Source: an uncultured Chloroflexia bacterium (lineage in GTDB: Bacteria > Chloroflexota > Anaerolineae > Anaerolineales > UBA4823). Taken from it: 64,000 nt of DNA. Both the position numbers and the translations under genes were made by a program. The stretch covers positions 53,284 to 117,283 of the forward strand of contig CAWCPR010000001.1 of assembly GCA_963797475.1 (NCBI GenBank), written 5' to 3'. The notes under the pieces were generated by a model. It had not been told where the DNA came from. It ran no database searches and saw nothing but the letters and a program-made list of their open reading frames with translations. Of the stretch, positions 12,701 to 63,035 are shown piece after piece (within the stretch, counting starts at the first letter, position 1; every line of letters starts with the position of its first letter).

Positions 12701-13237
12701 GTGCAGCGCCTGCACCTGGTCGTTCACATCCACCGGGCTGAGGCCGGCCGGCAGGTCGCTGGGGTTGGAAAGGGCCGCCAGGATGCGCACCGGTCGCTCG
12801 GTCAGCGGCGGCGTTTCGGCGATCTCCAGGCCGGTGTAGCGCGAGAAAGGGGTCAGGCCGGAAGTCGCCAGGGACAATTCCTGGCCTTTAAACGAGTGGT
12901 ACAGGCGCTCCCAATTGAACGCCTGCAGCTCGCTGGCGCTGTCGTCGATCCAAAGCTGGACGCGCAGCACGCCCTCCGCCTGGGCAGCGGCCTGGGCGGC
13001 CGCCCGCCCGGCGACCCGCTCGTAGGCGCGCAGGATCGGGCCGGCGAACAAAGCCTTATCCAGGGTTAAGCCGTAGGCCTGGGCGTCCAGTTGAGCGGCC
13101 AGCAGCGCTTTCGGATCGATCTGGAGCTGGCCGCCGGAAAAATAGCTGCCATCATCCAGCTCGGCGTCCACGGCGTACGCCTTGCTGTCCTGGGAAGAGC
13201 GGGTGATATGGATGAGGATCTTGGCCGGCTCGCTCAT
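9713..13237 (-). CDS. CHAT (caspase-like) peptidase - NACHT/STAND P-loop NTPase - HEAT-repeat protein
   Basis: N-terminal CHAT dyad HYIGHGAY...FLTACESAR. Walker A VVAGIPGSSKST and Walker B-like ILRLILDGGDE. C-terminal PBS-lyase/HEAT-like repeats. Its ATG lies 1 nt after the stop of the upstream 111-aa gene. Confidence 0.85.
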   Translation of the reverse strand: MSEPAKILIHITRSSQDSKAYAVDAELDDGSYFSGGQLQIDPKALLAAQLDAQAYGLTLDKALFAGPILRAYERVAGRAAAQAAAQAEGVLRVQLWIDDSASELQAFNWERLYHSFKGQELSLATSGLTPFSRYTGLEIAETPPLTERPVRILAALSNPSDLPAGLSPVDVNDQVQALHQALGDLASQDLVEVSVMPGRSGLDPALRGQLEQDGYHILPGPTSLDNLLRGMQGCHVLHYIGHGAYRRPDSNAPGTAALYLESENGEFHAARDSEIVEKLAQADPLPRLVFLTACESARRDPGEAHGFLGLGPSLVRCGVAAVVAMQDLVPVDVARQLNADFYGHLLEHGQVDRALNQARLLLFNDRGADWSIPVLFMRLKTGQLFAADPARLALQAIRNRQRSDMEKRGYLPIPIEVAHLAGDLSLDRLRLVGQDPLPAMDLLDIALQIFAARRQEPGSRGKPQGAFIVVAGIPGSSKSTQMRRLVLISAENSLQPGVRQLIIPVYVDLRGLQSVQPGTRSRLEGLTLQNLQEFWPALTPADFDELLEGDQGPILRLILDGGDELPDDQRQDAWEEIQALARGSRHEFILAVDLEEYSRRNFRAATDLLVIQPLSQRKVEMFLQGLSDPAGPRLYRVLAARQLFDLASTTWSLLGMLRQAQEGSYPQSRRDVLEHWVDDALAEVSPLHGMRSRSGRSVYALAWEMHSNRTLVLPVRNAFEIMASVRGNREYSLEDLFDQLVQCNLLARVGADSLRFNYPALQAYCCAREIVQRSDRSRVLDDITASLGRLSRLRWWGDVLVLTSRMLRNPNGLLRMMVYGVNLAQSEQLYLLARCLLENRGRQIDPQLENQVFDVLVRQLDTANEPREARRARAALVLGQLQRPQTIPALARAAFERVRTDWQGLPTFEYSSVRMAAANALQRMMPRYEREIQKASPTLAGVLKLWCVRDAASLGKRLRSEAAGSQAIAAFALGEINNDEAVDCLVSVFLDPDTPSQTSWAVTDALALVDPAQVVARAILPLLDETVAKTLNIDARAWRRRARWYERLAYLIGKVRAQDATTAHFLDRCLYEFRDIGVKAHAIQSLGWLNRRSYKELFEQIAAGDLHGVVLGANPVVTDITYLRRKAIEALARIGDLDSLNRLRRQRENWNPELEEAFYWTSEEINSAGFAPVS

Positions 13238-30640: not shown

Positions 30641-30926
30641 CAGGAACCAACCAAGAACAAGAGATATGGCAGCCCCATATATGGGTGAAAATTCCAAAAT
30701 ATAGGTTTTAACCCCCGTATATGGGGCATTTTTACGCCGGAATTAACCTTGACATTTCCAATTCGTACTATAATTAAAGCGCGTACGCAGTTGGCAGGGG
30801 ACCGGCGTTGTGGCAGCGAGCACCAACCGCCAAAACACGCCTGTCGTCGCTGGCCGCGTACTTATCGATTAACCTGGTTAAGGCAGCCCAGCCCATGCGA
30901 CTTTCAGGCGGCTTCCCAGGACAAAA

Positions 30927-30982
30927 GTGTTGGGCGCGCTTTGCGGGCCGCGCAACATGATTTTAGATCAACATCAAAATAG
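30927..30982 (+). repeat. Copy C of conserved bipartite ~60-nt motif, ending 9 nt before the ATG of the SPFH gene (includes GGAG RBS)
   Basis: GTGTTGGGCGCGCTTTGCGGGCCGCGCAACATGATTTTAGATCAACATCAAAATAGGAG. Confidence 0.7.
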
Positions 30983-41689: not shown

Positions 41690-42230
41690 AGGATTGAATC
41701 CCCCTCATTCCCCCTTGAAAAGGGGGAGGCTTGGAATCCCCCTCGATCCCCCTTACTAAGGGGGACGTTTGGAATCCCCCCAAGGCGGTCACGCCGGGCA
41801 CAAGCTTGAATCCCCATACCCCCTTGAAAGGGCGACGTTTGAATCCACCAAGGCGGTCACACGCCGGGCACAAGCTTGGAATCCCCCTCAATCCCCCTTG
41901 CCAAGGGGGACGTTTGGAATCCCCCAAGGCGGTCACGCGTAGCATAGCCCCTTGTGGGCGACGGGCACAAGTCACACGCCGGGCACAAGCTTGGAATCCC
42001 CCTCGATCCCCCTTGCCAAGGGGGACGTTTGGAATCCCCCAAGGCGGTCACACGTAGCATAGCCCCTTGTGGGCGACGGGCACAAGTCACACGCCGGGCA
42101 CAAGCTTGGAATCCCCCTCGATCCCCCTTGCCAAGGGGGACGTTTGGAATTTCCCCAAGGCGGTCACGCGTAGCCCCTTGTGGGCGACGGGCACAAGGCC
42201 CTATACTACAATGCGCCGGGATGGTTTCAT
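41690..42230. repeat. Tandem array (~4 units of ~115-130 bp) of composite REP-like element containing CCCCCTTG..CAAGGGGG hairpins and GTAGCATAGCCCCTTGTGGGCGACGGGCACAAG modules
   Basis: Direct reading. The sub-motif family matches the arrays at 9470-9725 and 43620-43850. Confidence 0.8.
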
Positions 42231-42393
42231 CCGGGCGGACTGATGGTCGAGCCGCCTCAATTTTCCCATTAAGCCGTCAGGCGTTTATAATTAGCCCGTA
42301 TTGCCGGGCAGTGATTTTCAAACCGTGTTTGCCGGGCAATCCAACTTTTGTATTGACAGCCATTCAGATCAACAGTTTAAAGGAGGGAATTCG

Positions 42394-43620
42394 ATGCTTT
42401 ACGACATGGTTTTCGAAGGGGGTGGTGCAAAAGGGACGGTCTTCGTCGGGGCGATGCAGGAGCTGCAATCGCGCGGCCACACGCCGGGACGCTTGCTGGG
42501 CACGTCCGCCGGCTCGATCATGGCGGCTTTGCTGGCGGCCGGCTACCAAACCGACGAGATGCAGCAGGCCCTGACCGAAAAGCAAAACGGCCAGCCGGTC
42601 TTCCTGGGCTTCCTGCAGATCCCGCCCCCGCTCACGCAAGACCAGATCGCCCACAGCACGGTGCGCGACCTGCTCCGCAAAGTCGACGTAAAATTAATCC
42701 CCGATTTTCTGGAAAACCAACTGGACAACGCCATCGCCGAGGCCCTGGCGACCTCCAGCTACACCAACCGCATCTTTTCCTTTCTCGAGCTGGGCGGTTT
42801 TTACGCCGCCGACACCTTTTTGACCTGGTTAAAGGGCAAACTCAATTCCGGCATCTACCCCCTGGAGCGCGGCGCCCACAAAAAAGGCGAGCAGCGCAAT
42901 TTTGGGGACATGAACCTGGCCGAATTCTTCGAGGCGACCGGCGTGGATCTCTCCGTGGTAGCGGCCAACACCCGCGACCGGGAAATGCTGATCCTGAACC
43001 ACCGCACCGCGCCGGACCTGCCGGCCGCCTGGGCGGTGCGCATGTCGATGAGCCTGCCGCTAGTCTGGCAGGAAGTCGTCTGGCAGCCCGAATGGGGCAA
43101 GTATCGCGGCGTGGATATCAGCGGCTGTTCAGTGGTGGATGGCGGCCTGCTCTCGAACTTCCCCATCGAGCTGTTCCTCTCCAACCAGCCGCAGGTCACC
43201 GGGGTGATGGGCGATTTGGTCGCCGGCGAACAGAATGTGCTCGGTTTCCTCATCGACGAGACGATTGAAGTCCCCGGCGCTCCCCCGCTGGAAACGAAGG
43301 AAAATGCATTCCAGGTCAGCGAGCTGCGCCCGGTCAGCCGGGTGACCAACCTGGTCAATACGATGCTTCAGGCGCACGATAAAAACGTGATCGAATCTTT
43401 CGAGCGCTTCGTCATTCGATTGCCGGCGAAAGGGTTCGGCACGATCGAGTTTGGCATGAGCGACGAGCGCCGCAACGCGTTGATCGCGGCCGGGCGGCAA
43501 GCCACCGCGACTTACTTCGACCGCCTGGAAGCCGGAGCCTCCTTCGGTGTGGGCGAAGCCACGGATCCGGCGGTGTCGAGCGCGGCCGACCGCATCGCGG
43601 CGCGCATGCTGTCGCGCTGA
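42394..43620 (+). CDS. Patatin-like phospholipase family protein
   Basis: Oxyanion motif GGGAKG, nucleophile elbow GTSAGS and catalytic DGG (VVDGGLLSNFP). Start chosen at ATG 42394 with RBS AGGAGGG. Confidence 0.85.
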   Translation: MLYDMVFEGGGAKGTVFVGAMQELQSRGHTPGRLLGTSAGSIMAALLAAGYQTDEMQQALTEKQNGQPVFLGFLQIPPPLTQDQIAHSTVRDLLRKVDVKLIPDFLENQLDNAIAEALATSSYTNRIFSFLELGGFYAADTFLTWLKGKLNSGIYPLERGAHKKGEQRNFGDMNLAEFFEATGVDLSVVAANTRDREMLILNHRTAPDLPAAWAVRMSMSLPLVWQEVVWQPEWGKYRGVDISGCSVVDGGLLSNFPIELFLSNQPQVTGVMGDLVAGEQNVLGFLIDETIEVPGAPPLETKENAFQVSELRPVSRVTNLVNTMLQAHDKNVIESFERFVIRLPAKGFGTIEFGMSDERRNALIAAGRQATATYFDRLEAGASFGVGEATDPAVSSAADRIAARMLSR

Positions 43621-43850
43621 CGCCCACAAGGGGCTATGCTACCGAACTTGTGCCCGTTGTGCCCGTTCGCCCTGACGCCCGCAATGGGTTACCGAACCAT
43701 GGCGGCCATCCGCAACGCCGGGCGCATGCTGTCGCGCTGACGCCTCAAGTAGCCTAGGGCCTTGTGCCCGTTGTGCCCATTGTGCCCGTTCGCGCTGACG
43801 CCCACAAGGGGCTATGCTACCGAACCATGGCGGCAGTCCGCCACAGGCAT
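43620..43850. repeat. REP-like element array in inverted orientation, including a duplicated copy of the last ~25 nt of the patatin gene
   Basis: CGCCCACAAGGGGCTATGCTAC at 43620 and 43798. GCGCATGCTGTCGCGCTGACGCC is present at both 43597-43620 and 43716-43740. Confidence 0.75.
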
Positions 43851-44938: not shown

Positions 44939-44958
44939 CTCTGGCAGGTGTATGATTA

Positions 44959-45039
44959 GTGTTGGGCGCTTGTGGCGCATCACGCAATATGATGGAGAGT
45001 TGCGGCTACGCCGCAATCTCCAGAGATTCATCAAAATAG
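44959..45039 (+). repeat. Copy D of conserved bipartite motif, with a 25-nt hairpin insertion (GGAGAGTTGCGGCTACGCCGCAATCTCC) between the two conserved blocks
   Basis: Direct comparison with the other copies; it lies 70 nt upstream of the 45112 start. Confidence 0.7.
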
Positions 45040-45111
45040 GAAATTCGGGTTTCGGTTGGCAAACCGGAACCCCGGACCATCCAATTAGCCGATCACCTGA
45101 ACACCTGGACC

Positions 45112-46344
45112 ATGAAAGCCATCCAGTTCAACGCCACCATCCCGCGCTACGCCCTGGGCCTCGCCCTGAGGAAGCTCTACCCCCCACTGCTGTGGAGCGG
45201 GCTTTCGTGCACCTACAGCGCCCAGGCGCCCGAGCCGCGCCCCCCGGCCCGGATTGGGTGGTGGTACGCACACGCTACGGCGGCATTTGCGGCACCGACC
45301 TGGGCAGCATCCACCTGCACACCAGCCCGTACTATTCGCCTTTCTCATCCTTCCCGTTCACCTTCGGGCACGAGAACTGCGCGACCATCGCCCAGGCCGG
45401 CGAGCAGGCTGCAGAATGGGCCGAAGGCGAGCGGGTGGTGGTCGAGCCGCTGCTGTGGTGCCGGCCAGCGCGGCTTCAGCGATCTGTGCCGCTACTGCTC
45501 CGGCGGCGAGATCAACCGCTGCGAGCGCCAAACCGACGGCAGCCTGGCGCCCGGCCTGCTGACAGGCGCCTGCCGCGACACCGGCGGAAGCTGGAGCGAA
45601 TTCTTCCTGGCCCACCGGTCGCAGCTCTACCGCCTGCCGGATTCCATTAATGACGAAAACGCGCTGATGATCGAGCCGTTTGCCGTAGGGCTGCACGCTG
45701 CTTTGCAAAACTTTCCGGAAGATGATGAGTGTGTGCTGCTGGTCGGGGCCGGCGCAATCGGCCTGTGCACCCTGGCGGCGCTGCGCGCCCTGGGCTCGCA
45801 GGCCGAAATCCTGGTCCTGGCGCGCTACCCCTTCCAGGCCCGGGCGGCCGAGCGACTGGGCGCCAGCCGGGTGATCCAGGCCAGGGGCCGGCAGGCCTAT
45901 GAGGCCCTGGCGGCCCACACCGGGGCGCGCCTGCTGCAGCCGATCATCGGCAAGACCGTTTTTTACGGCGGCGTGGATCGCACCTTCGAGTGCGTCGGCA
46001 GCAATACCTCCCTGGACGACGCCCTGCGCCTGACGCGCAGCGGCGGGCATGTCGCCCTGGTGGGCGTGCCCGGCATCGCCAAAGGCGTGGATTGGACCGC
46101 GATCCTGGCCAAGGAGCTGAACGTGCGCGCCGCTTTCGCTTACCACCACGACGAGCGCTTCCAGGGCGAGCGCCTGCGCACGTACGATTTGGCCATTCGC
46201 CTGATGGCCGAGGGCAAAGTGGACTTGAGCTGGATGGTGACCCAGCGCTACGCGATAGACGACTATGCGCAGGCGCTCAATATGCTCTCCAGCCGGGCAA
46301 GTTCTCAGGCCATCCGGGCAGTTTTCGCTTTTCCGCCCGGGTGA
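45112..46344 (+). CDS. Zn-dependent medium-chain dehydrogenase/reductase (MDR), apparently disrupted by two compensating frameshifts (possible pseudogene or sequencing indels)
   Basis: Frame 1 reads MKAIQF... up to about 45240. The conserved PGPDWVVVRTRYGGICGTDL...GHENCA...GERVVVEPLLWC then reads in frame 3 (45241-45459). From about 45460 frame 1 resumes with C..C..C Zn-site and Rossmann motifs (LLVGAGAIGL). The first shift is at a C6 homopolymer. Confidence 0.6.
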   Translation: MKAIQFNATIPRYALGLALRKLYPPLLWSGLSCTYSAQAPEPRPPARIGWWYAHATAAFAAPTWAASTCTPARTIRLSHPSRSPSGTRTARPSPRPASRLQNGPKASGWWSSRCCGAGQRGFSDLCRYCSGGEINRCERQTDGSLAPGLLTGACRDTGGSWSEFFLAHRSQLYRLPDSINDENALMIEPFAVGLHAALQNFPEDDECVLLVGAGAIGLCTLAALRALGSQAEILVLARYPFQARAAERLGASRVIQARGRQAYEALAAHTGARLLQPIIGKTVFYGGVDRTFECVGSNTSLDDALRLTRSGGHVALVGVPGIAKGVDWTAILAKELNVRAAFAYHHDERFQGERLRTYDLAIRLMAEGKVDLSWMVTQRYAIDDYAQALNMLSSRASSQAIRAVFAFPPG

Positions 46345-48196
46345 CCCGCCAAGGCCAGGATCGTCTGGGCTCGCGGCCGTAAGCCCATTTCATCGCCTGG
46401 GGAAGCGCAGCCTGAGACCCCCTGCGAGCTGTAAGTGTCAGTTTTACCGCTTTTGAGTTAGAGAGATCTACAGTTGGTTGTTTCAGCATTTGCGGCGCGC
46501 TGACCCGGTTGCGCCCGGCCTGCTTGGCCCTGTACATCGCCTGGTCCGCGGATTGAAGCACTTCTTCACTCGACGCCCCATGGGCCGGGAAGGCAGCCAC
46601 GCCGATCGAAATGGTGGCTTGCAGGGCGTGTTTGCCGTACGGCACGCGCAGCTCCTGGAACGCCAGCCGCCATTCCTCGGCGCGCTGCCGCGCATCCGTT
46701 TCTGCGATGTTAGGCAGCATGAGCAGGAATTCCTCCCCGCCGTAGCGACAGACGATATCGCCGGCGCGGGTAAACCCGCGCAGCAGGCGCCCCAGGGCTT
46801 GCAGCACCAGATCTCCGGCAGGATGGCCATAGGTATCATTGACCCGCTTAAATTCGTCGATATCCGCCATCGCCAGGCACAGGGGGTACTCCTCGCGCTC
46901 GGCGCGGCGGAATTCGCGATCGAGAGTCTCCTCAAGATAGCGGCGATTGAAACAGGTGGTCAGCGGGTCGCGGATGGCCTGCTCGCGTAGTTGGGCCTGC
47001 AGCGTGCGGATCTCTTCCATTTGCGCTTGCAGCTTCGCATAAGCCCGCTCGGCCTCGGCCCGGGCGGTTTGGGCGTCCTGCATCAGGTTGAAAGCCGTCT
47101 GGCGGCCTTCGTACAGCTCGAGGGCGCGCTGCTCCAGCTCCGTATGGCTGGACTGAAGGGCCTGCTGGGCCTGCCAATGCTGGGTCGTGTCGTGAAAAAC
47201 AATCACCCGCCCGTTGGGCCGCCGGCCGCGATGAACGAATGGGAAGAAAGACACCTCATAATGGCGGTCGCTGCCGTTTCGCAGTGCGAACTCGAACTGC
47301 GTGGCAGCCGGGTCCAGGCCGCTGTAAATCTGGCGCAGCGGGTCGGGCAAAATGTGCAACAGCGGGCTGCCCACCGCGTTGGGCGGCAAAGCCAGGAGCC
47401 GGCTGGCAGTGGGGTTCGAATCCACCAGCCGGTCGCGATCGTCCAAAACCAGCACGCCATCCACCATGTTTTCGAACAACACATCCCGGGCTGCCGGGGT
47501 GAAATCGATAAATTTAAAATTATAGGCGCCCCAGCTCAAAATAGCGCTCGAGCCGACCATTGCGAAAGGGATCACATCCAGCTCTTGCAGGGGCGTGATC
47601 CCGGCGATATGCAGCGCCACAACGCCGATGGTGAACAGGCTGGCTGCCAGCAGAGTGATGACCTGCTTGCGAAACAGGATGTGCGGCGAAATCAAATGGC
47701 GCGCCAGCAGAACAGCCGCGCCAATGAAGGCGAAAAAGCTGTAAGCCATGTGCAGCCAGTAGATCGGGCCGTGTCCGGCGTGCAGCATGGGAAAAGGACC
47801 CTCCAGGTTAACCGAAGCGGAAGTATAGAACAGGTGGTGCAGGTCGTTGGTGTAAACCGCAGTCAGGACAATCACCGGGATGATCCACAGCAAATAGATC
47901 CTCCAGGGTTTGAGCCATTTCTCCCGGTTGGTGTAATAAAAAACCAGGCTCAGCCATAAGGCCGGGATGACTGCCACCCCCAGGTATTCGGCCCGGACCG
48001 CCCACAGCATCCCCGGCAGCTCGGTGTTGGTCAATTCCACCCCGTAACTGAGGGCGTAGATCGCCACCGCCAACTGCAAGCTGGAAAAAACCACCCGGTT
48101 GACCGTTGTCGTCCGCCGGTAGCGAACCAGGACCGCCATGAGAACGCAAAACAAAGCCCCCACAAACAATAAAAAGATCACCAGTGTACGGAGCAT
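46277..48196 (-). CDS. Membrane-anchored (7TM) PAS-GGDEF diguanylate cyclase
   Basis: An N-terminal multi-TM region, a PAS domain and a coiled coil are followed by the GGDEF domain RYGGEEFLLMLP. Its 3' end overlaps the convergent MDR gene by 68 nt. Confidence 0.9.
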   Translation of the reverse strand: MLRTLVIFLLFVGALFCVLMAVLVRYRRTTTVNRVVFSSLQLAVAIYALSYGVELTNTELPGMLWAVRAEYLGVAVIPALWLSLVFYYTNREKWLKPWRIYLLWIIPVIVLTAVYTNDLHHLFYTSASVNLEGPFPMLHAGHGPIYWLHMAYSFFAFIGAAVLLARHLISPHILFRKQVITLLAASLFTIGVVALHIAGITPLQELDVIPFAMVGSSAILSWGAYNFKFIDFTPAARDVLFENMVDGVLVLDDRDRLVDSNPTASRLLALPPNAVGSPLLHILPDPLRQIYSGLDPAATQFEFALRNGSDRHYEVSFFPFVHRGRRPNGRVIVFHDTTQHWQAQQALQSSHTELEQRALELYEGRQTAFNLMQDAQTARAEAERAYAKLQAQMEEIRTLQAQLREQAIRDPLTTCFNRRYLEETLDREFRRAEREEYPLCLAMADIDEFKRVNDTYGHPAGDLVLQALGRLLRGFTRAGDIVCRYGGEEFLLMLPNIAETDARQRAEEWRLAFQELRVPYGKHALQATISIGVAAFPAHGASSEEVLQSADQAMYRAKQAGRNRVSAPQMLKQPTVDLSNSKAVKLTLTARRGSQAALPQAMKWAYGREPRRSWPWRVTRAEKRKLPGWPENLPGWRAY

Positions 48197-48220
48197 GAGG
48201 CTTGTGTTATCCCTGTATAA

Positions 48221-48276
48221 GTGTTGGGCGCGCTTTGCGGGCCACGCAACACGATTTTAGATAAACATCAAAATAG
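48221..48276 (+). repeat. Copy E of conserved bipartite ~60-nt motif
   Basis: GTGTTGGGCGCGCTTTGCGGGCCACGCAACACGATTTTAGATAAACATCAAAATAG. It lies in the divergent intergenic region between the GGDEF and cyclase genes. Confidence 0.7.
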
Positions 48277-48387: not shown

Positions 48388-48416
48388 TTGACGCGCCCCT
48401 TTGCATCTGGTATAGT
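48388..48416 (+). promoter_or_regulatory. Sigma-70-like promoter (TTGACG-17-TATAGT, extended -10 TGG) upstream of the cyclase-ATPase-TPR gene
   Basis: Hexamer match and spacing read directly. It lies about 75 nt upstream of the ATG at 48492. Confidence 0.45.
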
Positions 48417-48491: not shown

Positions 48492-51284
48492 ATGAAAAAC
48501 AACCATTCCTCGCCAGAAAAGATTTCTGATGCTCATTCTGGCGCCGTCACCTTTCTTTTCACCGACGTTGAGGGCAGCACCCAGCTCTGGGAGCAGCACC
48601 CTGAAGCCATGCGGTCTGCTCTCGCCCGGCACGACGCCCTGTTGCGAAACATCATCGAAACCCTGGGTGGACGGGTGATCAAAACCACCGGCGACGGCCT
48701 GCATGCCGTCTTTACACACCCCAGCCAGTCGGTATCGGCGGCCTTATCCTGCCAGGAAGCCCTGTTTCACGAGTCATGGAGCGGTCTGCCCGGCCCCATA
48801 CGTGTGCGTATGGGCCTGCACACTGGCGAAGCTGAGCTGCGGGACGGCGATTATTACGGCTCAGTGGTGAACCGCGCCGCGGGCTTGATGTCGATCGCCG
48901 CCGGGGGACAAACCCTGCTCTCCGCGGCCACTTGCGAGCTGGCGCGCGAGCAACTGCCTGAGGCAGCGCTCATCCGGGATTTGGGCGAGCACCGTCTCAA
49001 GGACCTGACCCGCCCCGAGCACATTTTTCAGCTAAGCAGCCCCGGTCTGCCCAGCGATTTCCCAGCGCTGCGCTCACTCGACGCGCTGCCCAACAACCTG
49101 CCCTTGCAACTGACCAGCTTCATCGGGCGCGAGGGCGAGATGGCAGAGGCGAAACGCCTGCTGGCGGCGACGCGCCTGCTGACCCTGACCGGGCCGGGCG
49201 GCACCGGCAAGACCCGGCTCTCGCTTCAAGTGGCTGCGGAAGGTTCCGATGATTACCCGGCCGGCGTCTGGCTGTTGGAGCTGGCTCCCCTATCCGACCC
49301 CGCCCTGGTTCCGCAGACAGCCGCGTCGGTTTTAGGGGTGCGCCAGCAGCCAGGCCGCCCGCTGGTGGAGGCCCTGATCGATTACTTGCGGGCGAAATCG
49401 CTCCTGCTGATCCTGGATAACTGCGAACACCTGGTCGACGCTTGCGCCCAACTGGCGACGACCCTGCTGAGCGCCTGCCCGAAACTAAGGATTTTGGTGA
49501 GCAGTCGCGAGGCCTTGGGTGTGGCGGGCGAAACGATCTTGCGAGTCCCTTCGCTTTCCTTGCCGGATCTTCACGCATCGACGCCCCAGGCGCTCAACCC
49601 ATCCGAAGCTGTACGGCTTTTCGTCGAGCGCGCCCAGGCGGCCCAGCCGGGCTTCGCCCTGACGGAGGCCAACCTGGGCGCGGTCGTCCAAATTTGCCGG
49701 CGGTTGGACGGCATCCCGCTGGCGCTCGAGCTGGCCGCGGCGCGCCTCAAGCTGTTCAGCGCCGAGCAGATCGCGGCACGCCTGGACGACCGTTTCCGCC
49801 TGCTCACCGGCGGCAGCCGCACCGCCCTGCCCCGCCAGCAGACCCTGCGCGCCCTGATCGATTGGAGCTACGACCTGCTCGACGAAGCCGAGCGAAAGGC
49901 CTTAAACCGCCTGTCTGTGTTCGCCGGCGGCTGGACATTTGAGGCGGCTGAAGCCGTCGCCGGCCCCGAGACGCTGGAGCTGATGTCCCGCCTGGTGGAC
50001 AAATCCCTGGTCGTCGTGGAGGATGCAGCCCAGGCCGGCGAAAAGCGCTACCGCCTGCTGGAGACCATCCGCCAGTACGGAGGCGACAAGCTGCTGGAAT
50101 CCGGCGAGTCGCAAGCGGCCCGCGATCTGCACCTGGCAGCCTATCTTTCTCTGGTTCTGGAGGCTGAACCGAAGCTGGACAGCCCGGAGTTAGTGCGCCG
50201 GCTGGATCGCCTGGAACCTGAGCTGGACAACTTTCGCCAGGCAATGGAATGGGCGCTGGAGCGCAGCCCGGAAGCCGCGCTGCAAATTTCCGCCGGCCTG
50301 CTTGCTTACTGGCAGGTGCGCGGCAACATCAGCGAAGGCCAGCGCTGGCTGAGCGAGAGCCAGGCCCGGGTTGAGGCGTTAGCGCCGGTGGAAGGGGAAG
50401 CCAAGCGCCAAAGACTGGCCTACCGGGCCAAGGGGTTGTGGGTGGCCGGGACCCTGGCTTTTGAAAATGGCGAGCTGAATGCCGCCCGCCTCTCGTTGGA
50501 AGAAAGCCTTCCATTGGCGCGCCAATCCGGAGAAAAGAGAACGCTCAGCAAGGCGCTGGGGATGTTGGGATTTACAGATGTGTGGTTAGGCGACGCCGCA
50601 GCGGCGGAGGCGGTGATCGAGGAAGATCTCAGACTCGCCCAGACCACGCACAACAGCCAGGATATCGTCATGATCAAGGCGGTCCAGGCTAACCAGGCCG
50701 CCCTGATCCAGCATGACTTCGCCGCAGCAAAAGCTTACACCCAGGATGTCTTCCGGCTCCTGCACGAGAACCCTGGCAATCCCTGGACCGCGGCCGTGTA
50801 CATTATGGGTTTGGGAACCATGGCTGCCTTTCGAGGAGACTATAGCGAAGCGTTAAGAAACTTTAAGGAAGGCGAAGCCTTGTTCCGCTCGTTCGGCGAC
50901 CGGCACATGGTCAACGCCATGCAGAGCGAACGGGCGCATATTGAGCGGCGGCTGGGCAATCTCGCCCAGGCCGCGGCGCTCTATTCGCAGACGCTCCTGA
51001 GCTGGCAGGAGATCGGAAACCGGGCCGCGCTGGCGCATGAATTGGAGTGCCTGGCCTTCATCGCCGCGGCGCAATCCCAATTCGAGCGGGCGGCGTGTTT
51101 GCTGGGAGCCGCCGAGGCCTTGCGCGAAAGCGTCAATTCGCCCATGCGGGCCGTCGAGCGCGACGAATACGAGCAGAATGTGTCCGCCTTGCGCGCCCAG
51201 TTAGAGCCTGAACAATTCGCCGCGGCCTGGGCCGAAGGCCGGGCGTTGACGATGGAGCAGGCAGTCGCCTATGCCGCCGCGTAA
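48492..51284 (+). CDS. Class III adenylate/guanylate cyclase domain - P-loop (NB-ARC-like) ATPase - TPR protein
   Basis: Cyclase motifs VTFLFTDVEGST and IKTTGDGLHAVF. Walker A LTGPGGTGKTRLS. Long helical/TPR C-terminus. No LuxR HTH. Confidence 0.9.
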   Translation: MKNNHSSPEKISDAHSGAVTFLFTDVEGSTQLWEQHPEAMRSALARHDALLRNIIETLGGRVIKTTGDGLHAVFTHPSQSVSAALSCQEALFHESWSGLPGPIRVRMGLHTGEAELRDGDYYGSVVNRAAGLMSIAAGGQTLLSAATCELAREQLPEAALIRDLGEHRLKDLTRPEHIFQLSSPGLPSDFPALRSLDALPNNLPLQLTSFIGREGEMAEAKRLLAATRLLTLTGPGGTGKTRLSLQVAAEGSDDYPAGVWLLELAPLSDPALVPQTAASVLGVRQQPGRPLVEALIDYLRAKSLLLILDNCEHLVDACAQLATTLLSACPKLRILVSSREALGVAGETILRVPSLSLPDLHASTPQALNPSEAVRLFVERAQAAQPGFALTEANLGAVVQICRRLDGIPLALELAAARLKLFSAEQIAARLDDRFRLLTGGSRTALPRQQTLRALIDWSYDLLDEAERKALNRLSVFAGGWTFEAAEAVAGPETLELMSRLVDKSLVVVEDAAQAGEKRYRLLETIRQYGGDKLLESGESQAARDLHLAAYLSLVLEAEPKLDSPELVRRLDRLEPELDNFRQAMEWALERSPEAALQISAGLLAYWQVRGNISEGQRWLSESQARVEALAPVEGEAKRQRLAYRAKGLWVAGTLAFENGELNAARLSLEESLPLARQSGEKRTLSKALGMLGFTDVWLGDAAAAEAVIEEDLRLAQTTHNSQDIVMIKAVQANQAALIQHDFAAAKAYTQDVFRLLHENPGNPWTAAVYIMGLGTMAAFRGDYSEALRNFKEGEALFRSFGDRHMVNAMQSERAHIERRLGNLAQAAALYSQTLLSWQEIGNRAALAHELECLAFIAAAQSQFERAACLLGAAEALRESVNSPMRAVERDEYEQNVSALRAQLEPEQFAAAWAEGRALTMEQAVAYAAA

Positions 51285-53352
51285 ATTTGCCGACCTCGAA
51301 TTGGGCCTGCTGCCCCAGGAACCGGGCAGCTACCGCCTCGATTTCCGCTTCGAGCTTCCCGATAGCGAAACCGATCTGCGCTCGGCGAAGATGGTCGCCG
51401 AGATCAGCCCGGATGCACTGCTGCGCTTCCTGCCCGGCGAGGCGGAGTACGGCAGAGCGCTCACCCAGGCGCTCTTTCAGGACCCCGAGCTCAAGGAGAA
51501 ATTCGCCGCGGCCCTGGCGGTCTGCCAGCAGAACGATCTCGCCTTGCGCCTGCGCCTGGTGATCGACGGGCGAGCGCCGGAGCTGCACGACCTGATCTGG
51601 GAATCGCTGCGCAACCCGCTGGACGATACCCCCCTGGCCACCAGCCAGAACATCTGCTTTTCACGCTACCTGGGCGGCAAGGACTGGCGACCAATGCCAC
51701 TGCGCCGCCAGTCGCGCATGTTCGCCCTGGTCGCCGTCGCCGCCCCGGACGACCTGGAAGACTTCCACCTGGCGCCGATCGACGCTGAAGCCGAGGTCGC
51801 CCGCGCCCGCGCCGCGCTGGGAAACATCCCGCTGACCACCCTGGGCCGCAAAGCCGGCGGCGACCCGGCTACCTTGAACAACCTGGCGCGGCTGCTCAGC
51901 CAGCGAAAGGCAGGCGGGCACAGCCACTTCGATATCCTGTATCTGATCTGCCACGGCAGCCTGCAGCGCGGCGAAGCCTGGCTGTGGCTCGAAGATGAGG
52001 CCGGGAAGGCCGCCCGGGTCTCCGGGAGCGAGCTGGCGACTCGCATCCAGGAGCTGCCGGAGGCGCCCATGCTGGTCGTGCTGGCGTCCTGCGAAAGCGC
52101 CGGCAGCGCCCAGGGCCGCGCCCTGGCTGCCCTGGGCCCCAACATCGCCCAGGCCGGCGCGCCGGCTGTGCTGGCCATGCAAGGCAAGATCAGCCAGGAG
52201 ACCAGCGCCCGCTTCACGGGTGCCTTTTTCCGCTCCCTGGCGGACCAAGGCGTGGTCGACCTGGCGGCAAGCGTTGCCCGCGGCGAGGTCAGGGACCGGG
52301 ACGATTACTGGATGCCGGCTTTGTTCATGCGCCTGCGCAGCGGGCGCATCTGGTACCAACCCGGCTTTGCGGGGGACAGCTCCGACCTGGTCATCTGGGA
52401 TGGCTTGCAGACATTCGTAGAGGAAAAGCTGTGCACCGCGATCCTGGGCCCGGAGCTGGCCAGGCCTTTGCTGGGCGACGAGCGCGAGATCGCCCTGAAA
52501 TGGGCCGACAGCCATGGCTACCCCCTGGCTTTCCAGGACCGGGGTGATTTATCCCGCGTGGCGCAGTACGTGGCCACCAACCAGAAAATTCGCTATCTGC
52601 GCATCGCCTATTACAAAGCCTTGCGGGAGGGACTGCTGGAACGCCTGCAAGATCCCCTGCCTGAAAATCTCGGGGATCCCGAACAATGGAAGCCGGATGA
52701 CCTGCTGCAGGCGCTGGAGCTGTCCGCGGCTGCCCGCTGGACGGAGGCCGCCGAAAACCCGTACCGCCTGCTGGCCCAATTGGGCTTGAAAATCTACATC
52801 ACCGCCGGCCAGGACGACCTGCTGTGCCAGGCGCTCAAAGAACGCGACGGCGACATCCAACCTGAGACGCGCATGTGCCCCTGGAACGAGGCGGTGCGCC
52901 TCGACCCGAGTCTGTGGATGTATGACGACGAGCCCACACCCGAGAAACCACTGATCTACCATTTGTACGGCCATTACAGCCAGCCGGCTTCGCTGGTGCT
53001 GACCGAAGACGATTATTTCGACTACATGATCAGCATGACCGTCCACCGCGACCTGATCCCGGATTCGGTCAGCGCCGCCCTGGCCAATTCGGCCCTGCTG
53101 TTCCTCGGCTTCCAGTTGGAAGACTGGCAGTTCCGGGTCTTTTTCCGCATGGTCATGAACCAGCCGGGAGCCCAGGGGCTGGAGCAGTTCAGCCACGTGG
53201 CGGCCCAGATCGCGCCGCTGGAAGGGACCATCCAGGACGCCGAGCGCGCCCGCCGCTACCTGCAGCGCTACTTCATGTCGGACCGCAAACAGATCGACCT
53301 GTACTGGGGGACCAGCATCGATTTCCTGCAAGACCTGGTTAGACGCCTGTGA
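51271..53352 (+). CDS. CHAT (caspase-like) peptidase fused to SIR2-like (SIR2_2 type) domain
   Basis: CHAT dyad DILYLICHGSL...VVLASCESAGS. C-terminal IYHLYGHYSQPASLVLTEDDYFDY...LLFLGFQLEDWQFRVFF resembles a SIR2_2 fold. The ATG overlaps the last codons of the upstream gene. Confidence 0.8.
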   Translation: MPPRKFADLELGLLPQEPGSYRLDFRFELPDSETDLRSAKMVAEISPDALLRFLPGEAEYGRALTQALFQDPELKEKFAAALAVCQQNDLALRLRLVIDGRAPELHDLIWESLRNPLDDTPLATSQNICFSRYLGGKDWRPMPLRRQSRMFALVAVAAPDDLEDFHLAPIDAEAEVARARAALGNIPLTTLGRKAGGDPATLNNLARLLSQRKAGGHSHFDILYLICHGSLQRGEAWLWLEDEAGKAARVSGSELATRIQELPEAPMLVVLASCESAGSAQGRALAALGPNIAQAGAPAVLAMQGKISQETSARFTGAFFRSLADQGVVDLAASVARGEVRDRDDYWMPALFMRLRSGRIWYQPGFAGDSSDLVIWDGLQTFVEEKLCTAILGPELARPLLGDEREIALKWADSHGYPLAFQDRGDLSRVAQYVATNQKIRYLRIAYYKALREGLLERLQDPLPENLGDPEQWKPDDLLQALELSAAARWTEAAENPYRLLAQLGLKIYITAGQDDLLCQALKERDGDIQPETRMCPWNEAVRLDPSLWMYDDEPTPEKPLIYHLYGHYSQPASLVLTEDDYFDYMISMTVHRDLIPDSVSAALANSALLFLGFQLEDWQFRVFFRMVMNQPGAQGLEQFSHVAAQIAPLEGTIQDAERARRYLQRYFMSDRKQIDLYWGTSIDFLQDLVRRL

Positions 53353-53367
53353 GCCCCCCACCGGACG

Positions 53368-56300
53368 GTGCGCTTGAATGAGACGCCAGAAAACCCCGCC
53401 AATCCGTTCGTCGGGCCGCGCGCCATCGAGTACGGCGAGCCAATTTTCGGCCGCCAGAACGAAACCCGCAAGCTGACCAACCTGATCCTGGCCAACCGCA
53501 TCCTGCTGTTGTATTCGCCCTCCGGAGCGGGAAAGTCGTCCCTGATCCAGGCCGCCTTGCTGCCGCGCCTGGAAGGGCGCAACTTTCTGGTTCTCCCGAT
53601 CATGCGGGTCAACCTGGCGCCGCCAATTGCGCTTGAAAACTCGGCGGGTATAAACCACCCGGCTGGGTTTAACCGCTATATTTTCAGCGTCTTGACTTCG
53701 CTGGAGGAAGGGCAGCCCGCAGAAGAACGCCTGCCGGTCGAAGCGCTGGCGGGCATGAGCTTCGACCAGTACCTGCAGCGTTACGAAAGCAGCCGCATCC
53801 TGTTGATCTTCGACCAGTTCGAAGAGATCCTGACCGCCGACCCGCTGGACCGGGAGGCGAAAAACGCCTTCTTCGAGCAGGTTGGGGAAGCGCTGGCTAC
53901 GCCCAACCGTTGGGCCTTGTTTGCCATCCGCGAGGATTATTTGGGGGCTATGGAGCCTTACCAGCTCCTGGTGCCGACCCGCTTTAAATTCACCTTCCGG
54001 CTGGACCTGCTGGAGAAGGAAGCCGCCCGCGAAGTCATCCAAAGCACAGCCGCCCAGGGAGGCGTGGATTTCAAAGCGGATGCCGCCAGCCGGCTGGTGG
54101 ACGATCTGGCCGAGGTCAAGGTCCAACTGGCGGACGGCAGCCTGGAAGCGCGCACCGGCGATTACGTCGAGCCGGTCCACCTGCAGGTGGTGTGCAGCCA
54201 CCTGTGGGAGAAGCGCAACCCGGGCGCGGCCGAGATCACGGCGGACGAGATCGCCGAAATCGGGGGCGTGGACGAATCGCTGGCTTTTTATTACGACCAA
54301 AGGGTCGCCCAGGTCGCCCAGGAGAGCGGGGTGAGCCAGCGGTTGATCCGTTCCTGGTTCGAAAACGAGCTGATCAGCGAAAGCGGCATTCGCAGCCCGG
54401 TGCTGATGGAGCCGGGGAGCAGCGCCGGCCTGGCCAACGCTGCCATCCTGAAGCTGGTGGACGCCCACCTGGTGCGGCGCGATGCGCGCCAGAGCGCCAC
54501 CTGGTTCGAGCTGGCCCACGACCGGCTGATCGCCCCCATCCGGCGCAGCAACAGCCTGTGGTTCGAGCGCAATCTGAGCGTGCTCCAGCGCCAGGCCGCC
54601 CGCTGGCAGCAGGAAAACCGCCCGGACCACCTGCTGCTGCGCGGCGAGACCCTGGCAAGCGAGGAGACCTGGGCCGCCGGCCACCCGGACGAGATGACCC
54701 AGGAAGACCGGGCTTTTCTGGAGGCCAGCCAGGCCCTGCGCCAGAAAGAGGAGGCCGCCCAGCGCCTGGAAGCCGAGATGCGCCGCTCGCGCCTCCAGCG
54801 CCGCTTCCTGATCGTGGTCATTACGCTGCTGGTCGCAGCGGTCATATTCGGGGTCTTTGCATTTATTCAGACAATTAACGCTGCTAATCAGGCTGCCGCG
54901 AACGCCGCCCTGGCGTTCCAGAACCAAAATATTGCCAAGACGGCCCAAAATGCAGAAGGCGCAGCGCTGACGGCGGAAGCCGCGGCGCGCAGCCAGCAAG
55001 CCAACGCCGAATCAGCCCGGGCGACGGCCGACGTCCTGCGGGTGACCGCCGAAGCCGGGGCGACTGCCGAGGCCGATCAGCGCCTGCAAGCGGACAACGC
55101 CAAGAAGATCGCCCAGCAGCAGGCATCCCTATCTCTGGCCCGCCAGATGGCGGCCCAGGGGCGCAACTACCTGAGTGTGGACACCCGCATCGCCGCCCAG
55201 TTTGCGCTGGAATCTAACCTCATCACCCGCACCTGGGAGAGTAGCAGCCTGCTACTCGACCTGGTTTTGGGCACGACTGGAGACGCCATACAGGAATACG
55301 GCCCGCCGATCCCCTCCCAGGAAGGCGCCATCTTTTCCATCGCCCTCAGCCCGGACCGCCAGCGGCTGGCCTGGGGCACGCTGAATGGCTACGTGGCGGT
55401 CTGGAATTACCAGGAGGGCCGCATGGAGTGGCGCCAGGCAAAACATAACGGCAATGTCCTCAGCCTGGCCTTCAGCCCGGACGGCAAATGGCTGGCCTCA
55501 GGCGGGGTGAACCCGGAATTGAACATCTGGGATGTCGCCAATGGGACGGTGGTCGCCAGGTTGAACGTCACCAACCGGGTTTACGGCCTGGATTTCCACC
55601 CGAGCCAGCCCTGGCTGGCAGCCGTCAACTTGAACGAGATCCGCATTTACGACACGAACACCTGGACCGAAATCCCGGCGATGCGCTACCCAACCGAACC
55701 GGATTGGATCCAGGATATCACCTGGTCGCCGGACGGCAGCCTGCTCGCATCGGCCGAATTTGCGGATGAAAACCCGCCCAACAACGGGATCGTGGTCTGG
55801 GATGCGAGCACACAACAGCATAAACTCTCCTTTCCGAATAATTTCAGCCTGTACAGCCTTTCCTGGTCTGCGGAGGGGGACTTTGTGGCAGCCGGCAGCA
55901 CAGATGGGAGGGTCATTGTCGGGAATATGCGCACCGGAAAGGAAGTCCCAACCGGCATCGCCTCTACCGGTCAGGACGTGCGCGGGGTGGCCTTCAGCCC
56001 GGATGGCAAGGTCTTCGTTAGCGGCGGGGAGGACCAGGCCATCAGCCTGTTTTCAACCAACGGGTATACACCCATCGGGCAGCTCAAACTGGATGACCCG
56101 CCGCGGCTCATTTACGATCTCGAGTTTCCACCGCTGCGAGGCGCCAACCTGCTGGCTGCCGCCCAGAATAACTTTAATACGGCCAGCTACAACGTCGGGC
56201 TGTACCTGATCGCCCCCGAAAACCCGCTCAGCAGCGAGTTGTCCAGCGGGCAAGGGGCCGTACGCGGCGCGGCCGCGCTGCCGGACGGCGGGTTACGGCT

Positions 56301-57144
56301 GCTGAGGGTGGAGCCCGGGCGGCTCTCCGTCAGCGAGCTGGACGCCAATGCCCAGGCCGCGGCGGGTGAGCGGGTTATTTTCGATCTAGCGGGGGTTTAC
56401 ACGACGACCGCCCTATCCACCGAGGGGGATTACCTGGCGCTGCAGGATGAGAACCGGGTGGTGTTGGTGTACGCCCTGCCTTCCGGAGAACCGGTCGAGA
56501 GCTACCCGCAAGACGGAGCGGTCAACGGCCTGACGTTCAGCGCGGGCAGCTCAGTGTTAGCCATTGGCGATCCCCTGGAAATCCGCTTCCAGAAAGGGAA
56601 CCCGGGCTCTTCCTTTTCAGGCTTACCGCCGGTCCAGCGAGCCGCCGGCTTCGGCCTGAGCGCGCTGGCCTTCAAGCCGCCGTCCGGCCCTTTCTTCCTG
56701 GCGCCCGGCGGCGACCTGGCTTCCGGCTATACGGATGGGAGCATTCGCTTGTGGAACCTGGATCCGTCTGCCAGCCGGGCCTTCGGCGGCGTCCCGGTTG
56801 AATTCAACCGCCACACGAGCCCGGTCACCAGCCTGGCCTTCAGCCCGGATGGAAGGCTCATGGCCTCCGGCAGCAGCGACAACACCCTGATCCTATGGGA
56901 CCTGGAGACCCGCCAGCCGGTCGGCTCGCCGCTGGCCGGCGCTCGGTTTGGCGTGACCGCCCTGGCTTTCCGGGATGACGATACGTTATTGGCCGGCTAC
57001 GAAGACGGGCGTCTGCTGGAATGGGACCTGCGCCTACAGCGCTGGGTCGAGATCGCCTGCGGGCTGGCGGGAGAGCCGCTGTCTAGAGATGAGCAGGCGC
57101 AGTATTTTCCCAATTTAGAATACCGAAATGTGTGCGGGCAATAA
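53368..57144 (+). CDS. nSTAND-type P-loop NTPase - single TM helix - WD40 repeat protein
   Basis: N-terminal NPFVGPRAIEYGEPIFGRQNE with Walker A YSPSGAGKSSL. TM helix FLIVVITLLVAAVIFGVFAFI. More than eight WD40-like repeats (LAFSPDGKWLASGG, VAFSPDGKVFVSGG, LAFSPDGRLMASGSSDNTLILWD). Confidence 0.9.
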   Translation: MRLNETPENPANPFVGPRAIEYGEPIFGRQNETRKLTNLILANRILLLYSPSGAGKSSLIQAALLPRLEGRNFLVLPIMRVNLAPPIALENSAGINHPAGFNRYIFSVLTSLEEGQPAEERLPVEALAGMSFDQYLQRYESSRILLIFDQFEEILTADPLDREAKNAFFEQVGEALATPNRWALFAIREDYLGAMEPYQLLVPTRFKFTFRLDLLEKEAAREVIQSTAAQGGVDFKADAASRLVDDLAEVKVQLADGSLEARTGDYVEPVHLQVVCSHLWEKRNPGAAEITADEIAEIGGVDESLAFYYDQRVAQVAQESGVSQRLIRSWFENELISESGIRSPVLMEPGSSAGLANAAILKLVDAHLVRRDARQSATWFELAHDRLIAPIRRSNSLWFERNLSVLQRQAARWQQENRPDHLLLRGETLASEETWAAGHPDEMTQEDRAFLEASQALRQKEEAAQRLEAEMRRSRLQRRFLIVVITLLVAAVIFGVFAFIQTINAANQAAANAALAFQNQNIAKTAQNAEGAALTAEAAARSQQANAESARATADVLRVTAEAGATAEADQRLQADNAKKIAQQQASLSLARQMAAQGRNYLSVDTRIAAQFALESNLITRTWESSSLLLDLVLGTTGDAIQEYGPPIPSQEGAIFSIALSPDRQRLAWGTLNGYVAVWNYQEGRMEWRQAKHNGNVLSLAFSPDGKWLASGGVNPELNIWDVANGTVVARLNVTNRVYGLDFHPSQPWLAAVNLNEIRIYDTNTWTEIPAMRYPTEPDWIQDITWSPDGSLLASAEFADENPPNNGIVVWDASTQQHKLSFPNNFSLYSLSWSAEGDFVAAGSTDGRVIVGNMRTGKEVPTGIASTGQDVRGVAFSPDGKVFVSGGEDQAISLFSTNGYTPIGQLKLDDPPRLIYDLEFPPLRGANLLAAAQNNFNTASYNVGLYLIAPENPLSSELSSGQGAVRGAAALPDGGLRLLRVEPGRLSVSELDANAQAAAGERVIFDLAGVYTTTALSTEGDYLALQDENRVVLVYALPSGEPVESYPQDGAVNGLTFSAGSSVLAIGDPLEIRFQKGNPGSSFSGLPPVQRAAGFGLSALAFKPPSGPFFLAPGGDLASGYTDGSIRLWNLDPSASRAFGGVPVEFNRHTSPVTSLAFSPDGRLMASGSSDNTLILWDLETRQPVGSPLAGARFGVTALAFRDDDTLLAGYEDGRLLEWDLRLQRWVEIACGLAGEPLSRDEQAQYFPNLEYRNVCGQ

Positions 57145-62890: not shown

Positions 62891-62970
62891 CGGGCACGGA
62901 TCCGTCCAGCAGGGCGTCCAGGCCTGAATCTCGAAGACAGGCATCGCCCTGCTAAATTTCAACGGAAAAA

Positions 62971-63027
62971 GGGTCGGGCGCTTGTGGCGCACCACGCATT
63001 ATGGTGAAAAGAGTTTCATCAAAATAG
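62971..63027 (+). repeat. Copy F of conserved bipartite ~60-nt motif (5' block slightly diverged), immediately upstream of the GntR promoter
   Basis: GGTCGGGCGCTTGTGGCGCACCACGCATTATGGTGAAAAGAGTTTCATCAAAATAG. Confidence 0.65.
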
Positions 63028-63035
63028 AACGATGA

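Follow-up and report, generated by a model that had tools for sequence, protein, structure and literature searches.

A conserved gene pair for a CHAT-SIR2-like protein and an nSTAND1-transmembrane-WD40 protein, found mostly in Chloroflexota, as a candidate apoptosome-like system

Three closely packed genes on one strand of DNA from an uncultured Chloroflexia bacterium (NCBI GenBank assembly GCA_963797475.1, contig CAWCPR010000001.1, positions 53,284 to 117,283) raise the question whether they form one system, and what such a system would do. They lie in the stretch of 64,000 nucleotides (nt) analysed here, which we call the window. Gene 1 encodes a nucleotidyl cyclase joined to an ATPase and TPR repeats, gene 2 a CHAT (caspase-like) protease fused to a SIR2-like domain, and gene 3 an NTPase of the nSTAND1 clade followed by a transmembrane (TM) helix and a WD40 region. 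A first reading of the letters alone (the original prediction) had proposed all three as a candidate new defence or cell-death system. The three open reading frames (ORFs) were recovered with the same coordinates, strand and spacing: genes 1 and 2 overlap by 14 nt, the stop codon TAA of gene 1 (51282-51284) lying within the first codons of gene 2 (ATG at 51271), and 15 nt separate the stop of gene 2 from the GTG start of gene 3 (53368). What is conserved is the pair of genes 2 and 3, whereas gene 1 is a lineage-specific neighbour of recent date.

A profile of gene 2 homologues, run against a collection holding one genome per species (185,579 species), gave 299 confirmed stretches, from which 79 loci were kept. 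The domains of the three window proteins were then used one by one as tblastn queries against these loci. Of the 79 CHAT-SIR2 copies whose downstream sequence is long enough, 72 are followed at less than 1 kb on the same strand by an nSTAND1 gene. For three of the remaining seven (L004, L069 and L079) tblastn located an nSTAND1 gene elsewhere in the locus, and in L012 one CHAT-SIR2 copy is followed by a second. The pair is also present in loci L080-L085 and L088-L090. Besides this directly observed gene order, nSTAND1, CHAT and SIR2_2 occur together on one polypeptide in protein P0497, a fusion that is independent evidence that the products of genes 2 and 3 work together. The coupling of a STAND NTPase and its WD40 sensor to a CHAT-SIR2-like protein, one part of the original prediction, is thus borne out by conserved adjacency.

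No part of gene 1 gave a tblastn match in the 79 homologous loci. Locus L080, from a 95%-identical relative, has all three genes and retains the 14-nt overlap, but no cyclase gene stands beside the pair in L081 (70% identical gene 2 orthologue) or in L082-L085 (61% orthologues), where the pair itself is present. Orthologues of gene 1 (62-70% identity) lie in unrelated neighbourhoods. Among 61 upstream neighbours of the pair, the 25 most frequent Pfam families include no cyclase domain and tblastn found no match to gene 1. The synteny with nSTAND1, the absence of gene 1 from the 79 loci and from the 70% and 61% loci, and the P0497 fusion together identify genes 2 and 3 as the conserved unit. 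Synteny of all three genes in related genomes, on which the original prediction had staked itself, holds for genes 2 and 3 and fails for gene 1, which leaves a single three-gene system unsupported.

A search for a conserved third gene on the upstream side gave none common to all loci, as the neighbours there are mixed (SH3_3 in 10/61, Peptidase_C39_2 in 7/61, WD40 in 4/61). In one sub-clade of the pair, the gene directly upstream is co-oriented and encodes a product of about 470-540 amino acids (aa) with an N-terminal Peptidase_C39_2-like domain, SH3_3 repeats and no obvious signal peptide. This gene may be a lineage-specific third component.

The original model gave gene 1 a central part: STAND or TPR modules would sense an invader, the cyclase would make a nucleotide second messenger, and the CHAT protease would gate a SIR2 NADase (an enzyme consuming nicotinamide adenine dinucleotide, NAD). 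It could draw on the gene overlap and its retention in L080, on a weak similarity of the cyclase domain to Pycsar cyclases in PADLOC (E 2e-5), and on the resemblance of the SIR2 fold of gene 2 to defence NADases. The domains that it assigned to gene 1 are present. Pfam detected Guanylate_cyc at aa 16-152 (E 1.4e-13) and, both below the curated cut-offs, AAA_22/NB-ARC at aa 227-460 and TPR_MalT at aa 730-889, and the protein combines Guanylate_cyc, a P-loop STAND ATPase, a winged helix and TPR in one chain. Its family, named 'predicted ATPase/class 3 adenylate cyclase', has at least 8000 members at E <= 1e-10, with homologues carrying PF00211, PF13401, PF25872 and TPR and one, P0121, encoded on a 3.05-Mb contig, 100% identical. 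A family of this size makes chance adjacency to the pair easy.

The cyclase domain of gene 1 retains D25, K64, D68, D120 and N127; from the spacing in class III cyclases we take D25 and D68 to be the metal-binding aspartates, K64 and D120 the Lys/Asp pair expected for adenine, and N127 the transition-state asparagine. Position 131 is Arg in 118/120 homologues and Gly only in the window protein, and the L080 protein (94% identical) has Arg there, a difference of one base (CGC against GGC). Judged by its position, this R131G exchange is likely crippling for the cyclase, unless the base was miscalled; real or a sequencing error, it weakens the case for gene 1 as a signal amplifier here. Genes 2 and 3 contain no cyclic-nucleotide-binding, SAVED or CARF domain within the Pfam limit, which also speaks against a cyclase-amplified signal, as does the loss of the catalytic His of SIR2 across the family (see below) against its NADase output. 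The three-gene model is largely refuted by synteny, and we consider it very improbable. Gene 1 appears instead to be an ordinary cyclase-STAND-TPR signalling gene that recently landed upstream of the pair and is probably co-transcribed with it.

Class III adenylate cyclase-ATPase-TPR proteins have an architecture identical to gene 1, with thousands of full-length homologues at 50-70% identity; the Rv0386-type protein of Mycobacterium tuberculosis belongs to the same class. Gene 1 differs in having no C-terminal LuxR helix-turn-helix and in its Gly at the transition-state Arg. To Pycsar and CBASS it is alike only in a weak match to PycC models that spans about 70 residues (E 2e-5); here the cyclase is not conserved with effector genes, no nucleotide-sensing effector domain is found, and the architecture is another.

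In gene 2, which has more than 1000 homologues, Pfam detected CHAT (PF12770) at aa 59-345 (E 2.6e-28) and SIR2_2 at aa 508-667 (E 3e-20). An AlphaFold2 model made with 121 sequences reached a predicted local distance difference test (pLDDT) of 90 and a predicted template modelling score of 0.84. Foldseek searches of the PDB matched its N-terminal half to the CHAT domains of DdvA and Csx29 and its C-terminal half to ThsA (E 1e-10), KomC, DSR2 and SPARSA Sir2, with probability 1.00 for ThsA, KomC and DSR2. The His/Cys dyad of the CHAT domain is intact, as originally read, and His228 and Cys274 are invariant in 121/121 sequences; by this conservation the protease looks active.

The original claim of a C-terminal SIR2 NADase fared otherwise: the SIR2_2 fold was supported by Pfam and Foldseek, but the catalytic residues are not present. 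Active-site positions were assigned by profile alignment to ThsA (6LHX/8BTO) and 7UXT. Asn112 of ThsA (TTNYD) aligns with a variable position that is Gly513 in gene 2 and Asn in 27/121 close homologues and 75/149 representatives of 50%-identity clusters. His152 of ThsA (KxHG) aligns with Phe or Tyr, Tyr566 in gene 2; this position is F106/Y11/L3/M1 in the 121 close homologues and F129/Y10/L9/A1 in the 149 representatives, and never His. ThsA needs its catalytic His. Structures in the PDB include KomC and DSR2 with the catalytic His mutated (H146N and H171A, respectively). Since the catalytic His is absent from all relatives examined, the Asn is Gly513 here and these His mutants exist, a canonical NADase role of the SIR2-like domain is unlikely, and with it a CHAT protease gating an NADase in the canonical form. 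Most likely the domain serves as a docking, oligomerisation or nucleotide-binding module.

Non-canonical chemistry would leave room for a two-gene abortive infection system that depletes NAD+, with the STAND protein activating gene 2, the SIR2-like domain acting as an NADase through, for example, His564, and the CHAT domain auto-processing or activating it. The retained Gly-rich loop (G393 invariant, G402 in 119/121) would suit this, as would H564 (110/121), the Asn in half of the cluster representatives, the top structural neighbours, all of which are defence NADases, and the SIR2-STAND fusions (Avs5, e.g. PDB 9jap) known as defence proteins. Apart from the residue losses described above, the TIR domain added in some relatives would be redundant were the SIR2-like domain already an NADase, and we regard this alternative as quite unlikely.

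The family of the SIR2-like domain comprises at least 773 clusters (50% identity) at E <= 1e-30 and is nearly always C-terminal to CHAT, with rare variants in which TIR or Peptidase_C25 is added N-terminally. The variants among P0497, P0475, P0408 and P0438 read nSTAND1+CHAT+SIR2_2, TIR+CHAT+SIR2_2, TIR+unknown+SIR2_2 and Peptidase_C25+CHAT+SIR2_2. The His-less family also includes proteins of about 360 aa with SIR2_2 as their sole Pfam match. A motif at the CHAT/SIR2-like junction, SGRIWYxPGF (gene 2 aa 357-366; 52339-52368), is almost invariant across the family, has a pLDDT of about 73, and may be an interdomain hinge or processing site.

The assignments made for gene 3, an nSTAND-type NTPase, a single TM helix and a long WD40 region, were confirmed by Pfam and hydrophobicity. 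The nSTAND1 profile (PF20703) matches aa 27-419 with 118 bits (E 1e-33; cut-off 27.1). None of 121 sequences departs from GAGKS in Walker A or DQFEE in Walker B, and with the C-terminal repeat sensor on the same chain the protein fits the nSTAND1 clade. An AlphaFold2 model of aa 1-520 has a pLDDT of 94, and a sequence search of the PDB with the nSTAND1 module gave no meaningful match. The TM segment sits inside a continuous predicted helix (residues 445-519 of the model) and is followed by an Ala/Gln-rich helical stalk. WD40 was detected with E 7.7e-49, with repeats from about 650 to 1232 and matches to many propeller families. Recent concerted evolution of these repeats was considered and rejected, the DNA repeats (family D6) being only 65-77% identical. 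In L080 (12092-15849) gene calling splits the orthologue of gene 3 into two ORFs (877 + 385 aa), which part from the window protein near residue 836; this is either a frameshift or a long-read assembly error.

The original prediction had treated the TM helix as a membrane anchor; its conservation and charge bias point instead to an extracytoplasmic WD40 sensor. A hydrophobic segment follows the NTPase at the equivalent position in 62/63 homologues, and K+R counts in the 15-residue flanks average 5.2 on the N side against 2.4 on the C side (N>C in 56, N<C in 3). As the NTPase must be cytoplasmic, the positive-inside rule places the stalk and the WD40 region outside the cell, and we predict an extracytoplasmic WD40 region joined to a cytoplasmic NTPase. 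What follows the TM helix varies in relatives: usually WD40, sometimes Lcl_C or an unclassified region, with the Lcl_C lectin-like domain found in one CHAT-SIR2-linked relative. LysM, DUF1566, FHA or trypsin domains are found somewhere in the protein in further members of nSTAND1. Lcl_C and LysM domains are usually extracytoplasmic, and the variable post-TM domains fit a variable sensor, often of extracytoplasmic type.

Taking these findings together, we think it fairly probable that the pair works like an apoptosome, with a STAND receptor that spans the membrane and switches on a soluble caspase-like protease in the cytoplasm. The gene order, the fusion, the conserved residues and the predicted folds come directly from the data, while the topology, the activation mechanism and the biological role are inferred, the mechanism by analogy with Apaf-1, NLR and Avs STAND proteins. 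The WD40 sensor of gene 3 would bind a ligand, and binding would lead to NTP-dependent oligomerisation of the nSTAND1 module at the inner membrane face. The oligomer would recruit or cluster the CHAT-SIR2-like protein and switch on the protease by induced proximity, and proteolysis of targets would bring about growth arrest, cell death or a signalling response in the filament. More tentatively, gene 3 could be a transmembrane NLR-like receptor, an 'outside-in apoptosome', whose outward WD40 region senses an extracellular or envelope cue (candidates are a phage, a neighbour cell or a wall fragment) and whose helix relays it to the NTPase switch, upon which the caspase-like protease fires; the sirtuin fold would then be a non-catalytic adaptor or ligand-binding module. 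The TIR-CHAT-SIR2 variants, the tandem and multiple paralogues, the Chloroflexota bias and the nSTAND1 clade, itself defined in predicted conflict systems of multicellular bacteria, give the pair the flavour of a conflict system.

Several points weigh against this apoptosome-like reading. No EAD-type adaptor domain pair was identified in genes 2 and 3 by Pfam, so their physical interaction is deduced from synteny and one fusion. In that fusion (P0497) the CHAT-SIR2 part occupies the usual position of the sensor, and Pfam detected no WD40 or other sensor, so the division of labour could differ from the one proposed. The outward orientation of the WD40 region comes from the TM prediction and the positive-inside rule. 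H564, two residues before the canonical His position, makes non-canonical SIR2 chemistry possible. Gene 1 is probably co-expressed with the pair, since the 14-nt overlap persists in L080, and in this lineage it could modulate what the pair does. More generally, tight operon-like packing can be a recent accident and need not be evidence of membership in a system. The original prediction had put up a defence-island context for checking; neither the window nor any of nine sampled loci showed one, and the neighbours are ordinary chromosomal genes (e.g. cytochrome oxidase genes, hydrolases, sugar metabolism, PadR/DinB genes). Plasmid and phage collections hold no full-length copy and gave only partial matches to single domains.

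These chromosomal contexts outside islands, and the lack of a full-length gene on plasmids or phages, would suit a function other than immunity, namely envelope or cell-cell signalling in filamentous bacteria, in which the outward propeller senses a wall or neighbour cue and the CHAT protease processes a regulator, comparable with HetF-type differentiation or division control or DdvA-type proteolytic signalling. The CHAT domain has weak NCBIfam similarity to HetF (E 2e-9) and in structure resembles that of DdvA, a transmembrane anti-sigma factor; the sub-clade with the upstream Peptidase_C39_2 + SH3_3 gene and the predicted extracytoplasmic sensor would also agree with signalling. Chloroflexota (Anaerolineales, Chloroflexia, Oscillochloris and others) account for 68/79 loci, and Acidobacteriota, Moduliflexus/Vecturithrix and a few other bins for the remainder. 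Against a signalling role speaks the patchy distribution, unlike that of a conserved single-copy core gene. Several genomes hold the pair two or three times, with tandem duplicates in L007, L012, L013 and L054. Multiple tandem, diverged paralogues with variable sensors are more typical of conflict or allorecognition systems, TIR-fused variants exist, and predicted conflict systems are the only other setting known for the nSTAND1 clade (PMC8195603). A signalling role is in our judgement rather unlikely.

Does the pair correspond to a known system? PADLOC-DB v2 gave no system-level match for the three proteins, only weak single-domain matches for genes 1 and 2 (PycC, SAVED_CHAT, ThsA, LmuA) and none for gene 3, and NCBIfam matches were far below thresholds. 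Among the papers searched we found none on a CHAT-SIR2 or caspase-SIR2 combination, which upholds the original statement that no named system corresponds. The nSTAND1 clade was named in a comparative genomic study of conflict systems in multicellular bacteria (Kaur, Iyer, Burroughs, Aravind 2021, PMC8195603), where the described systems have N-terminal effectors or EAD adaptors and an FGS/CLec sensor called intracellular. Genes of this clade are also targets of hypermutation by diversity-generating retroelements (PMC10907252). The main texts of PMC8195603 and PMC10907252 do not mention a CHAT-SIR2 partner, and the main text of Kaur 2020 does not mention SIR2, CHAT or nSTAND. As none of these texts describes a CHAT-SIR2-like + nSTAND1-TM-WD40 pair and PADLOC has no model for it, the pair is a new form of an already predicted system class: widespread, uncharacterised and mostly from Chloroflexota, with a role that we assign by inference.

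With nSTAND1 conflict systems it shares the NTPase clade, the combination of an NTPase with a repeat or lectin sensor and a peptidase or NAD-processing effector, the enrichment in filamentous or multicellular lineages and the several paralogues per genome. There the effector or EAD is fused N-terminally; here it is a separate upstream gene, no EAD was found, the NTPase of gene 3 is preceded by only about 26 residues, with no N-terminally fused effector or EAD/Death-like adaptor, and a conserved TM helix stands between NTPase and WD40 sensor. Bacterial Apaf-1-like proteins combine WD40 sensors with N-terminal caspase-like domains (PMC12803255). The pair resembles them and the Apaf-1 apoptosome in its P-loop STAND switch, WD40 sensor and caspase-fold protease output and, by analogy, probably in activation by induced proximity; it differs in that the protease is on a separate polypeptide with an extra SIR2-like domain, and that the TM helix is predicted to put sensor and NTPase on opposite sides of the membrane.

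The SIR2_2 fold is shared with ThsA (Thoeris), DSR2, KomC (Kongming) and SPARSA Sir2, the top Foldseek matches (E 1e-10 to 1e-7), and the association of SIR2 with a STAND NTPase is shared with Avs5. Unlike these defence NADases, the family has Phe, Tyr or Leu for the catalytic His, with Gly for Asn in gene 2, and the SIR2-like domain is C-terminal to a protease and not the sole effector. Csx29 (Craspase), SAVED-CHAT, DdvA and HetF have the CHAT fold with an intact His/Cys dyad in common with gene 2, the matches to SAVED-CHAT (PADLOC, E 2e-8) and HetF (NCBIfam, E 2e-9, 36 bits against 1200) being far below cut-offs. Gene 2 differs from them in having no TPR, SAVED or anti-sigma module, and its partner is an NTPase receptor, not a CRISPR effector or a cyclic-oligonucleotide sensor.

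To our knowledge, the characterised bacterial STAND/NLR-like immune proteins (Avs, bNACHT) are so far cytosolic sensors with fused effectors. The family would add a STAND receptor that spans the membrane and probably has its sensor outside, a caspase-like output encoded by a gene of its own, and a defence-type SIR2 fold that is strongly conserved without its catalytic His and almost always tethered to a protease. The pair offers a tractable two-gene model for apoptosome-like machines in filamentous bacteria, and is also informative on the role of inactive sirtuin folds in STAND-linked proteins. A variant Sir2 domain is, for example, attributed to SAMD9 (PMC5445408).

The features of the locus are collected in Table 1.

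Table 1. Coordinates of genes, domains, residues and upstream elements (window positions unless a locus is named)
Feature	Position	Strand	Remarks
Gene 1	48492..51284	+	930 aa, ATG start; class III nucleotidyl cyclase + STAND-type P-loop ATPase + TPR
Gene 1 domain bounds			cyclase aa 16-152; P-loop ATPase aa ~227-460; TPR aa ~560-930
Gly131 of gene 1	48882..48884	+	codon GGC at transition-state Arg position (VNxAAR motif)
Gene 2	51271..53352	+	693 aa, ATG start; cytoplasmic CHAT (caspase-like) protease fused to His-less SIR2-like domain
CHAT domain, gene 2 aa 59-345	51445..52305	+	His228 codon 51952-51954; Cys274 codon 52090-52092
SIR2-like domain, gene 2 aa 366-693	52366..53349	+	Gly513 (52807-52809) for catalytic Asn; Tyr566 (52966-52968) for catalytic His
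Gene 3	53368..57144	+	1258 aa, GTG start; nSTAND1 NTPase, single TM helix, helical stalk, WD40 region
nSTAND1 module, gene 3 aa 27-419	53446..54624	+	
Walker A SPSGAGKSS, gene 3 aa 50-58	53515-53541	+	
Walker B LIFDQFEE, gene 3 aa 146-153	53803-53826	+	
TM helix, gene 3 aa 480-500	54805..54867	+	FLIVVITLLVAAVIFGVFAFI; RRSRLQRR just before
WD40 beta-propeller region, gene 3 aa ~641-1258 (about 620 aa)	55288..57141	+	predicted sensor
Sigma-70-like promoter match	48388..48416	+	TTGACG-17 nt-TATAGT, TG before second hexamer; 76 nt 5' of gene 1
Copy E of recurrent ~58-nt intergenic motif	48219..48276	+	AGTGTTGGGCGC...CACGCAACA.GAT...CATCAAAATAG; repeat families D9/D10
Peptidase_C39_2 + SH3_3 gene	L020 8460-9962; L026 3747-5156; L028 2585-4198		
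Peptidase_C39_2 + SH3_3 gene	L033 8456-9910; L036 8176-9624; L064 8463-9932		

Both upstream elements of the original prediction, the sigma-70-like site and motif copy E, were recovered. The promoter match agrees with 10/12 consensus positions, in a region where the consensus scan found 4 sites against 1.4 +/- 1.1 in shuffles, and is weak evidence, a consensus match only. Copy E stands 216 nt upstream of gene 1. A terminator scan within and after the operon gave no more than expected by chance. The divergent upstream neighbour (46277-48196, minus strand) is a 7TM-PAS-GGDEF diguanylate cyclase, and in L080 a shorter HisKA_7TM gene occupies its position; with this gene at the matching position, the upstream flank is conserved between window and L080, whereas the downstream flank is different.

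The recurrent motif occurs in the window at 23558-23615, 30925-30982, 44958-45040, 48219-48276 and 62970-63030. It contains an inverted repeat (GTGTTGGGCGC...GCG.CACGCAACA), and alignment of the five copies shows that CATCAAAATAG does not vary. For the copies at 30925, 44958 and 62970 the next plus-strand ORF begins 10-85 nt downstream. An Rfam scan of the whole window gave no match, for this motif included. It may be a common promoter, operator or leader element.

STAND and CHAT genes abound in the genome of the window. Another CHAT protein, an unrelated one of 1174 aa (9713-13237, minus strand), has C-terminal HEAT repeats and is adjoined by a 689-aa ORF with a weak Peptidase_C25 match (14513-16582, minus strand), and a further STAND-type protein (24655-27381, minus strand; 908 aa) combines an AAA_16/NACHT-like P-loop with TPR. 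Clusters of short tandem or interspersed intergenic repeats at 9501-9704, 41691-42200 and 43582-43825 border the CHAT-HEAT gene and a patatin-like gene (42301-43620); their units are 32-50 nt containing GTAGCATAGCCCCTTGTGGGCGACGG, or 115 nt with CCCCCTT..AAGGGGG palindromes. A 1399-aa ORF (17231-21430, minus strand) probably encodes a repetitive surface protein: it contains a Big_7 Ig-like domain, and its DNA has three tandem repeats of 300 nt (621-nt period, 90-91% identical).

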